DNA of 64,000 nucleotides. Origin: Candidatus Bathyarchaeota archaeon. Its GTDB lineage: Archaea; Thermoproteota; Bathyarchaeia; Bathyarchaeales; Bathycorpusculaceae. The stretch lies in the NCBI GenBank assembly GCA_963702095.1, contig OY969706.1:2816001-2880000 (forward strand), given 5' to 3'. The notes under the pieces are model-generated. The model was not told the DNA's origin. It saw nothing but the letters and a program-made list of their open reading frames with translations, and ran no database searches. This document shows positions 4,817-63,343 of the stretch, one piece after another (positions within the stretch are counted from its first letter, which is position 1; each line of letters opens with the position of its first letter). Made by a program: the position numbers and the translations under genes.

Positions 4817-4963
4817 CCTAGCCCTTTTTTGGGGGTCACAAGTATAGCTTAGGTGACAGTTAAGGGTTTTGCATTACTACCTGTTTGGCTCTGCCATCTA
4901 TTGGAAAGGGAATTTAGGGTTTTTTTGCGCTTTTCTAGATGATTTTGGCTGTAATTTTGTTTT

Positions 4964-5090
4964 TTCTAGTGTTAGATGAAGGCAGAGTGCCCCTTACTCA
5001 TCATCTTCCTGTGGACTTGGTGGGCGGCTTTGTTTTGCGTTCTGCAACGGAAATGGTTTACATGCTGGTTGTGGCTGATTCTACAAGTAG
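4964..5090 (+). repeat. Dispersed 127-bp intergenic repeat, family 1, copy A
   Basis: Ungapped hand alignment: ~76% identical to 30030-30156 and ~81% to the reverse complement of 63093-63219; invariant core TGTTTTGCGTTCTGCAA. Confidence 0.92.
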
Positions 5091-5121
5091 GGATGCTCCG
5101 CCAAAGAACTATCGACTTCTC

Positions 5122-8543: not shown

Positions 8544-8618
8544 TGCTCCGGCCGGGATTCGAACCCGGGTCGCCGACTCGAAAGGCCGGCATACTTGACC
8601 GGACTATACTACCGGAGC
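8544..8618 (-). tRNA. tRNA-Glu (TTC), intronless
   Basis: Reverse complement folds as a cloverleaf: acceptor GCTCCGG/CCGGAGC, anticodon arm CCGGC-CTTTCGA-GTCGG, T-loop TTCGAAT. Confidence 0.96.
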
Positions 8619-29956: not shown

Positions 29957-30029
29957 CAGGTTTAAGCTCTATTTTTGTTTGGTCTTTGGTGAATGATTGC
30001 CCAAGTCTCCACACTTCTTTTCTTTGATC

Positions 30030-30156
30030 TTCTAGTGCTAGAAGAAGAGAGTGTCGCCTTTACTCAACATCTTCTTGCGGACTTTGCAGACGGTTGTGTT
30101 TTGCGTTCTGCAATGCCGATGGGTTGCTATCTGGTTGAGGCGATTTCTACAAGCAG
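30030..30156 (+). repeat. Dispersed 127-bp intergenic repeat, family 1, copy B
   Basis: Ungapped alignment to 4964-5090 (about 31 mismatches in 127). Confidence 0.88.
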
Positions 30157-30242
30157 TCCACAGTTTTTGACCTGCCTTATGTAGTTTTTAGGGTGTTTTG
30201 CTTGGTGTGTTATAGGTTAATTTTATATGATGGCAAATACAT

Positions 30243-48673: not shown

Positions 48674-49021
48674 TCCATCGGCAACAATAGCGTTAAACGT
48701 AGTGTTGGCTGGGGGACAGGCGAATGAGCTCTCAATGGGTCCTGCTAGTGCCCGATTGCAATTCGCTGTTCACTGCTGTTTGCACTATGGCTTGTGCTGA
48801 AAACGCACTGGTTGCATATTGGTTTCCACGGGAAGCGCGCCTCTGGGTGCTTTTTTCGCCATCATATTAGGCTCCAAATATCAGATGTATGCACAAATCA
48901 GTAGAGGGAGGGTTCCTGTGCGGTGGGAAGGTGCGTTTTACGCATTTGTGTTGGCACGCAGAATCCTATATAGAGGGATAAGGTTCTTTTGGTGGAGTGA
49001 GTAGCCATTAAATGTTGGAAA

Positions 49022-49282
49022 TTACCCGCTTTTGTAGGGGAGGGCGGTTGTGGCTGAGCAACAAGTGCTGTTTATTTGCTGAGCCTTTTTCGAGCGCAAA
49101 CGAGATATGCTTTCACATCCATATCGCGGCGGCTTCAAAATGGAGCCATGCAGGCGTGTGGAGAAAAACCGATATCCCACACCAAAACAGACGCCAAAAC
49201 CATTGCAACCGCAAAAAGCAACCGTGTCCAATTCCTGTCTTGTGACAATTCTAAAACTGCCACACCCACATATAGAGAGAAA
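49022..49282 (-). repeat. Structured intergenic repeat, family 2, copy 1
   Basis: Reverse complement aligns block-wise with 51428-51696 (TATGTGGGTGTGGC, CACAAGACAG, GGTGTGGGATATsGGTTTTTCTCCACAC, CATGGyTCCAT); boundaries approximate. Confidence 0.8.
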
Positions 49283-49331
49283 CACAAAACAGTTAACTAG
49301 TAAAACAGAAAACAAAAGAAAAATGGCTCGT

Positions 49332-51228: not shown

Positions 51229-51427
51229 ACCTTATAAACCTCCATTAATGCGAACAACAACATGATATGCTTAACCATATAAGTTTTTCTAGGCACGCCA
51301 CGTTGATACAGGCACAACAGAGCGGTTTTGGCAGGGTTTAGCGGCTTTTTGCGGCGAATGCAGGTTTGTGTGGCGGCAGAGGACGGCTTTTTGTTGCTCT
51401 CAGCGCTCTCCCCCCGTCTTCTGCGGT

Positions 51428-51696
51428 TTGTCTCTTTATGTGGGTGTGGCGTTTTATGGGGCCCACAAGACAGCTTATGGGGCAAGCTCCGTTTTGGGGT
51501 TGTGATGTTTTTATTTGACTATTTGGGTGTGGGATATGGGTTTTTCTCCACACACCATACATGGTTCCATGCAGGGGCGCACGGGATGTGTGTGTTTAAG
51601 CATGTATCAACTAGTTTTTTAGCGTCATTTAGCGTCATCTATTGAGGCGCAGATAACCTGGTTAGCCGAATGCCGCATAAAACAGAAGGCGGTTAC
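51428..51696 (+). repeat. Structured intergenic repeat, family 2, copy 2
   Basis: Diverged inverted copy of 49022-49282; strongest match at 51428-51570. Confidence 0.8.
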
Positions 51697-63000: not shown

Positions 63001-63092
63001 ATCCGTGTGCCTTCTGTTTGTGTGGGGTAAGGTGAGAGATGTTAATTATTAAACGGTTACGGTTGGGTCATCATAGGCGGAGAGTGCAACAT

Positions 63093-63219
63093 GCGCTTGT
63101 AGTTTACTCCACATCTAGACCGCAATACGTTTCCGTTGCAGAACGCAAAACAAAGCCGTCCGCCAAGTCCGCTGGTAGATGATGAGTAAGGGGCGCTCTG
63201 CCTTCATCTAACAATAGAA
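63093..63219 (-). repeat. Dispersed 127-bp intergenic repeat, family 1, copy C
   Basis: Reverse complement matches 4964-5090 without gaps; about 7 mismatches in the first 90 nt. Confidence 0.92.
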
Positions 63220-63343
63220 CAACTAAAAGCTCGAAATTTTGATCCGCTGTTATAGGACATAGCGAGATTGCGCCTAAATTAGGCTGTGGTAAAGTTAAAT
63301 AGCACATATCCCCAGTTAGAGAATTAACCCACAGTGACCCCAA

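Follow-up and report, generated by a model that had tools for sequence, protein, structure and literature searches.

A high-copy family of short intergenic repeats in a Bathyarchaeota genome, probably MITEs of an ISH3-like insertion sequence with cores kept alike by recombination

REP and BIME sequences are abundant, lineage-restricted intergenic repeats that occur in mosaics, and non-functional insertion sequence (IS) elements of Wolbachia reportedly undergo gene conversion, a finding attributed to Cordaux in 2009. Inversions between the terminal inverted repeats (TIRs) of Wolbachia IS elements are ascribed to ectopic recombination in the part of the source covered (PMC3004938). The MITEs SM1–SM4 of Sulfolobus solfataricus are present in 25–44 copies each according to the sections of PMC10969869 covered, which also count ERIC as a MITE and describe inversion of the Correia element. 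For Halobacterium, the portion of PMC7002104 covered places ISH-type elements at the borders of inversions and gives a target-site duplication (TSD) of 5 bp as typical for ISH3, and its MITE table, in the part covered, holds no ISH3-class MITE. The part of PMC11602168 covered presents a catalogue of 18,091 archaeal MITEs. No prior description of the repeat family considered here was found in the literature on Bathyarchaeia/Bathyarchaeota, MITEs, ISH3 and gene conversion, and the archaeal MITE catalogue of PMC11602168 may contain it.

The family came to light through three copies in the window, a stretch of 64,000 nucleotides of a Candidatus Bathyarchaeota archaeon (contig OY969706.1). The 127-bp copies lie where the original prediction had placed them, on the strands it had given, and align without gaps over the full 127 bp. 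Their identities of 75.6% (A/B), 81.1% (A/C) and 70.9% (B/C) bear out its hand estimates of ~76% and ~81% for the first two pairs, and the neighboring genes are also as described: a GINS subunit, DUF2283, a PQQ-repeat protein, an HTH match (weak, E 0.009, below the cut-off), an M42 peptidase and serS. A profile seeded with the three copies and run to convergence found 181 matches at E<1e-5 in the genome (G000; 2.94 Mb, 90% complete) and none in its reversed sequence, so that the expectation of further copies of an abundant, lineage-specific, non-autonomous element was right. Near-full copies make up 171 of the 181, with a mean pairwise identity of 62%. They form two subfamilies, A (110 copies) and T (61 copies), told apart by nine diagnostic positions within the first 60 bases at which A and T are swapped in concert. 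The blocks first taken as invariant are shared by the three window copies and do not extend to subfamily T (61 of the 171 near-full copies), where A and T are swapped across TTACTCA/CATCT. Gene overlap is at most 10% for 164 of the 181 copies by a crude gene caller, and orientation to neighboring genes is random (53/45/43/40). Of 120 genomes of the genus, 27 have the core motif. When 400 genomes were drawn from across the class, it turned up in 11 of the 40 that belong to this genus and was not found in the rest. Viral contigs had 25 loci with a short pattern and 0 with the full core, plasmids gave no match to the core, and three DNA contig runs gave distant relatives only, with no usable empty site. 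The family probably consists of MITEs mobilized by an ISH3-like DDE transposase, the cores that now lack TIRs having since been kept alike by recombination with one another. The window features are listed in Table 1.

Table 1. Repeat cores and associated terminal inverted repeats in the window
Feature	Position	Strand	Basis or remark
Core copy A, subfamily A	4961..5093	+	No recognizable TIR; old site
Core copy B, subfamily A	30027..30159	+	Profile search and subfamily typing
Possible decayed right TIR of copy B	30165..30177	+	4/13 mismatches; 10.6% of control windows reach the same
Core copy C, subfamily A	63090..63222	-	Profile search and subfamily typing
Left TIR of copy C	63237..63249	-	1 mismatch to CAGTRGATCAAAA; AT-rich 4-mer before the TIR

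Word enrichment near the cores is found for GATCAAAA leftward and TTTTGATC rightward, at variable distance. The TIR is 13 bp long, CAGTRGATCAAAA, and stands beside a minority of the cores. With at most two mismatches it occurs left of 24 and right of 23 of the 181 copies (control 0.14%), on at least one side of 40 and on both sides of 7; the other 141 copies have none. At up to three mismatches, both TIRs are seen in 11 of the 181 copies, three of which have an exact 4-bp TSD. Genome-wide, 21 of the 33 TIR sites with at most one mismatch abut repeat cores, and locus L089 has a perfect TIR pair. Intact elements are mostly 160–185 bp long with the layout TIR-core-TIR, the spacer between TIR and core varying in length. 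The absence of terminal inverted repeats in the original prediction does not stand, since copy C has one (Table 1), found at the same site also in the relative G007, and TIR remnants lie beside many copies; ungapped flank profiles are blank beyond the core, which is why no TIR was seen at first. The remnant right of copy B is doubtful, given the share of control windows that match as well. In another relative, G103, which possesses the transposase described below, both TIRs with at most two mismatches are found in 9 of 64 copies (960 kb), against 7 of 181 in this genome, and 6 of 12 two-TIR copies have an exact TSD.

Comparison with G007 (791 kb with 48 copies; 86% DNA identity to this genome) gave 12 shared collinear sites, 6 sites occupied in G007 only and 4 in this genome only. 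Of the ten one-sided sites seven could be aligned, two with a clean TSD and five without a clear boundary. The first clean insertion is 174 bp long and lies between CTAA repeats, the second is a two-TIR insert between TTAT repeats, and in each case one similar 4-mer is present at the empty site. A third insertion has both TIRs with TTAAA on each side and is empty in G007, its ends having been split later by inversion. Empty orthologous loci, a comparison proposed with the original prediction, thus exist, and filled and empty sites together show duplication of 4–5 bp of an AT-rich target. Four G007-only sites of a first sample gave no clean TSD and had TIRs at only one of the four, and some lineage-specific copies are without TIRs.

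The same TIR bounds ISH3-like IS elements of 1.1–1.3 kb in relatives, with 11 IS loci carrying DDE/ISH3-like ORFs. The first of these, obtained by a genus-wide search for the TIR pattern, is 1163 bp long, with TIRs around an ORF of 354 aa. The partner ORFs (347–354 aa) match PF01609, and their best NCBIfam model is NF033541 (ISH3; E 3e-51 to 4e-51), with a score of 174 bits against a model cut-off of 225. Exact 4-bp TSDs flank 6 of the 9 IS elements that have the same TIR and both flanks; those of 5 bp were confined to a few MITE sites and to two more distant IS elements whose TIR is a variant. Related elements with the same TIR occur in records of Bathyarchaeia, Thermoplasmata and Nitrososphaeria. 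Within the genus, the closest transposase subgroup is found in G103, G113 and G076. The core motif is present in all three, compared with 27 of the 120 genomes as a whole; it is missing from four genomes in which a ~50%-identical transposase is bounded by the same TIR. Most of the core-rich relatives, namely G007, G005, G091, G079, G050 and G106, gave no match to the partner transposase, and neither the transposase nor a relic of it was found by PF01609 and IS searches in this 90%-complete genome. The best 30 of 400+ DDE matches in the genus have neither the core nor the TIR pair. Unrelated interiors lie between the same TIRs at L088, L092, L096, L082 and L094 (G050), with TTAA duplications in three, implying that the transposase likely served several MITE families.

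The repeat family therefore has four of the five features of MITEs. It is short, multicopy and non-coding (181 copies, largely intergenic); it has TIRs as a family, with most single copies lacking them; TSDs are found at filled versus empty sites (three sites against G007); and an autonomous IS with the same ends exists in relatives, none being found in this genome. The fifth would be mobilization in trans by the transposase. The REP/PATE-like (HUH) element first suggested does not agree with these TIRs and TSDs, and models PF01797, PF02371, PF07282 and PF00078 gave no match in this genome, where no Y1 transposase of the RAYT/TnpA kind, TnpB, IS110 or reverse transcriptase was found; HUH, IS110 and retro-element partners were rejected on the silence of the domain models in this genome. 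PF04986 (IS91) also gave no match here, in a search whose controls were silent too. An origin of the core from a transposase gene or IS interior is unsupported, with a single 44-nt match (E 0.001) in 1 of 13 elements.

The history of the cores after insertion is seen in pairs of copies within the genome. Eight pairs share at least 50 identical bases, and seven of the eight are inverted and less than 60 kb apart, an arrangement found in 305 of all 14535 pairs; among nearby direct pairs, 0 of 283 reach 85% identity. In several homogenized pairs the identity covers the core and ends at the core boundaries, the tracts often running from the T-tract to CAAGCAG and leaving the TIRs and spacers outside. 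When four homogenized pairs were compared with G007, the intervening DNA could be shown to be inverted in three. Each copy of three inverted pairs retains one flank or TIR of the ancestral element, and in three cases the core is flipped at one site. Replicative duplication as the origin of identical inverted pairs was rejected for those checked: either the two partners have different TIRs and spacers, or relatives carry copies at both junctions. Rearrangement at cores is seen at the window copies themselves: in G007 the left flank of A is joined through one core to the downstream peptidase gene of C, and the remaining two flanks of A and C have other partners. Site A is occupied by a copy in the same place and orientation in four of six relatives (G007, G103, G079 and G113), with no copy in G091 and a partial copy only, farther off, in G005. 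The flanks and orientation in G103 are as here, but the core is of subfamily T.

Gaps that hold copies are synteny breaks 2–5 times more often than control gaps, with 9 of 25 against 5 of 64 in the comparison with G007 and 18 of 26 against 42 of 122 with G103 (p=0.002 in each), counting only copies with both flanking genes mapped (25 of 48 in G007, 26 of 64 in G103) and with control gaps that are somewhat shorter. Of all 43 synteny breaks against G007, 27 touch the repeat family or a sister family of 190 bp, which explains much of the gene-order scrambling between these close relatives. Ordinary homologous recombination is hard between 130-bp segments that are ~70% identical. A dedicated factor might pair the diverged cores, drive their conversion and inversion and seed copies without TIRs, the core itself being the selfish unit and the TIRs an occasional vehicle. 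Such a scheme would accommodate homogenized tracts that leave out the TIRs and their variable spacers, the several unrelated cores with the same TIRs and the TIR-less lineage-specific copies. It is quite improbable, however, as conversion tracts end at homology limits in any case, the clean new insertions have TIRs and TSDs, and a tyrosine recombinase link was rejected for want of consistent adjacency (a copy lies within 5 kb of three of the seven matches).

Tyrosine recombinase genes lie in small clusters that resemble integrated elements at G000:C1:213218-214507, 560226-561155, 663169-664686, 1026656-1028155, 1066601-1068094 and 2936138-2937349; two are less than 400 bp from a core copy and two are just inside homogenized inverted pairs. 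The sister family of ~190 bp has two copies in the window, at 49065-49288 (-) and 51423-51629 (+), and 114 genome-wide at E<1e-5. A short central motif links it to the core, and in relatives it lies between the same TIRs; it also forms homogenized inverted pairs and coincides with synteny breaks at 7 of 8 gaps (G007) and 4 of 4 gaps (G103). Close neighbors (<250 bp) among the copies of both families are on the same strand in 20 of 20 cases in this genome, mostly in the order subfamily A, subfamily T and 190-bp family, an order that is not universal in relatives. An "arm" motif of ~50 bp (CTGTTGCTCTGCC ... CCTCCCC ... TAT), found at 49021-49085 (-) in the window and in 48 matches genome-wide, directly adjoins, on the outer side, a large number of TIRs in the two MITE families and in the partner IS subgroup of G103, G113 and G076; the motif could be a favored insertion target or one end of an older element. 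Another dispersed repeat, the third and ~200 bp long, occupies 46 intervals (G000:C1:2279298-2296434 and elsewhere), one copy abutting the same TIR at 2332143, and further repeats include a ~70-bp family of GTCAAG/CTTGAC units (40 intervals) and modules that trail the 190-bp family. The genome also has short ORFs arrayed in tandem, with recurring GG.K motifs (G000:C1:150631-152138), presumably akin to stress-induced small hydrophilic proteins.

Conservation within the core is specific to position. Columns conserved to at least 95% number 31 of 129 in subfamily A and 36 in subfamily T, against at most 0–1 under uniform decay, and shared genealogy could account for some of this conservation within the genome. 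More telling is the comparison across species. The base is the same here and in G103 at 52 of 53 and 49 of 49 conserved columns, with four-fold sites 46% identical, and the conservation profiles correlate with rho of 0.72 and 0.82. About 50 core positions are thus kept across species with near-saturated synonymous sites; the match of columns would also be expected if copies had recently been passed horizontally from one species to another. At the 12 sites shared with G007, conserved columns match in 353 of 367 comparisons (96%) and variable columns in 779 of 1107 (70%), with four-fold sites at 68% and immediate flanks at 83%. Since the variable columns change at about the four-fold rate, overwriting of cores is shown only by the subfamily switches and the homogenized pairs. 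A protein-coding core was rejected: pN/pS is 0.58–1.14 over the frames of both subfamilies with no frame favored in both, and a three-base rhythm is not significant over the whole core (p 0.32–0.38).

The core contains two imperfect dyads in which G/C positions are fixed, A/T mismatches are tolerated and the spacing is constant; judged from their sequence, the dyads look more like binding sites on double-stranded DNA than like RNA structure. A multi-copy structured non-coding RNA, one of the original suggestions, or a UTR element is most improbable. The A/T swap keeps the first dyad complementary, both sides being changed at two pairs in 20 of 45 sequences, and covariation over the whole structure in the mixed alignment exceeds 500 of 500 shuffles. 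This compensatory signal is a single subfamily split, however: within either subfamily no helix rises above shuffles, the top covarying columns are not base pairs, and A:A and T:T mismatches are common within the dyads. Folding scores are weak on either strand (mean z of -0.5 to -1.1), the core has no Rfam match, and its random orientation to genes also counts against an RNA or UTR. For the stem originally proposed between GTGGG and TCTGC, 77% of cells in subfamily A and 60% in subfamily T are paired, which is no more than shuffling of the columns gives: 121 and 432 of 500 shuffles, respectively, reach the observed pairing. A scan of copy A for bacterial-type promoters and terminators found none, its models being bacterial and archaeal signals outside their scope. 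A tRNA gene at 8544-8618 (-) is the sole Rfam match in the window at gathering score.

Binding sites in the cores would suit a history in which MITEs were later domesticated, a host DNA-binding protein such as a nucleoid organizer or regulator now binding the dyads, with selection acting on each copy. The excess of identity in conserved columns over flanks and four-fold sites at the sites shared with G007 is in line with it, as are the near-constant core length (111–113 between two anchor columns in 154 of 171 copies), the occupation of site A in most of the relatives compared and the sharing of copy positions with G103, more frequent (9 of 26) than in controls (16 of 122; p=0.017). Domestication is nevertheless unlikely, because the core motif was not found in 93 of the 120 genus genomes, copies have no preferred orientation to genes, close relatives have gained and lost sites, and high identity at invariant columns is also predicted by conversion from paralogues; a binding protein was not identified. 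A bolder reading, speculative and unlikely, is that MITE interiors form a genome-wide recombination platform in this one genus, a putative protein recognizing the dyads and pairing ~70%-identical cores, so that ~300 sites, the 190-bp sister included, would drive inversions and overwriting without transposase or TIRs.

The favored course of events, a MITE family whose cores went on to recombine, may be pictured in four steps. Elements of TIR-core-TIR layout, with the TIR of the relatives' IS, inserted with a 4–5-bp duplication of an AT-rich target, as the intact elements and the filled and empty sites show. An ISH3-like transposase would have moved them in trans and later been lost from this genome. 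Recombination of cores with other cores would then have produced the inversions, subfamily switches and homogenized pairs that are observed: exchange between inverted copies would turn round the intervening DNA and separate the members of TIR pairs and of target duplications, gene conversion would swap the core at a fixed site, even for one of the other subfamily, and TIRs, lying outside the shared homology, would decay during conversion of the core. Finally, the ~50 positions at fixed spacing, including the two dyads, would be constrained, most likely as putative protein-binding sites on double-stranded DNA needed when master copies amplified, and conversion would pass the constrained pattern on to old copies.

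These results add a high-copy MITE family and a matching ISH3-like IS to Bathyarchaeia, a poorly studied archaeal class. The family offers a tractable case for how archaea recombine short diverged repeats and for whether a host protein adopted them; should nothing more than conversion of stranded MITEs lie behind it, the family is an ordinary parasite, if a well-documented one.

Among known systems, ERIC, Correia, REP and BIME repeats resemble the family as abundant, lineage-restricted intergenic repeats in mosaics with sister repeats, with no sequence link shown, but the core here does not form a single long palindrome, and a search of the genome gave no Y1/RAYT transposase. As in the Wolbachia IS elements of the part of PMC3004938 covered, elements are flipped at one site and homogenized by recombination; the substrate here, unlike those full IS elements, is a 130-bp core about 65–70% identical between copies. 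The partner belongs near the ISH3 family by its PF01609 match and best NCBIfam model, whereas its sub-cut-off score and a TSD of mostly 4 bp, rather than the 5 bp typical in the part of PMC7002104 covered, are the reasons why it is not filed as ISH3. Like SM1–SM4 and the Halobacterium MITEHsal, as described in the parts of PMC10969869 and PMC7002104 covered, the family is short, non-coding, intergenic and multicopy, with IS-shared TIRs and target duplications. Unlike them, it has ~180 copies, mostly TIR-less, an interior that is full-length and conserved by position, and no partner found in the genome, so that the usual MITE pattern is inverted here, the ends decaying and the interior being kept.
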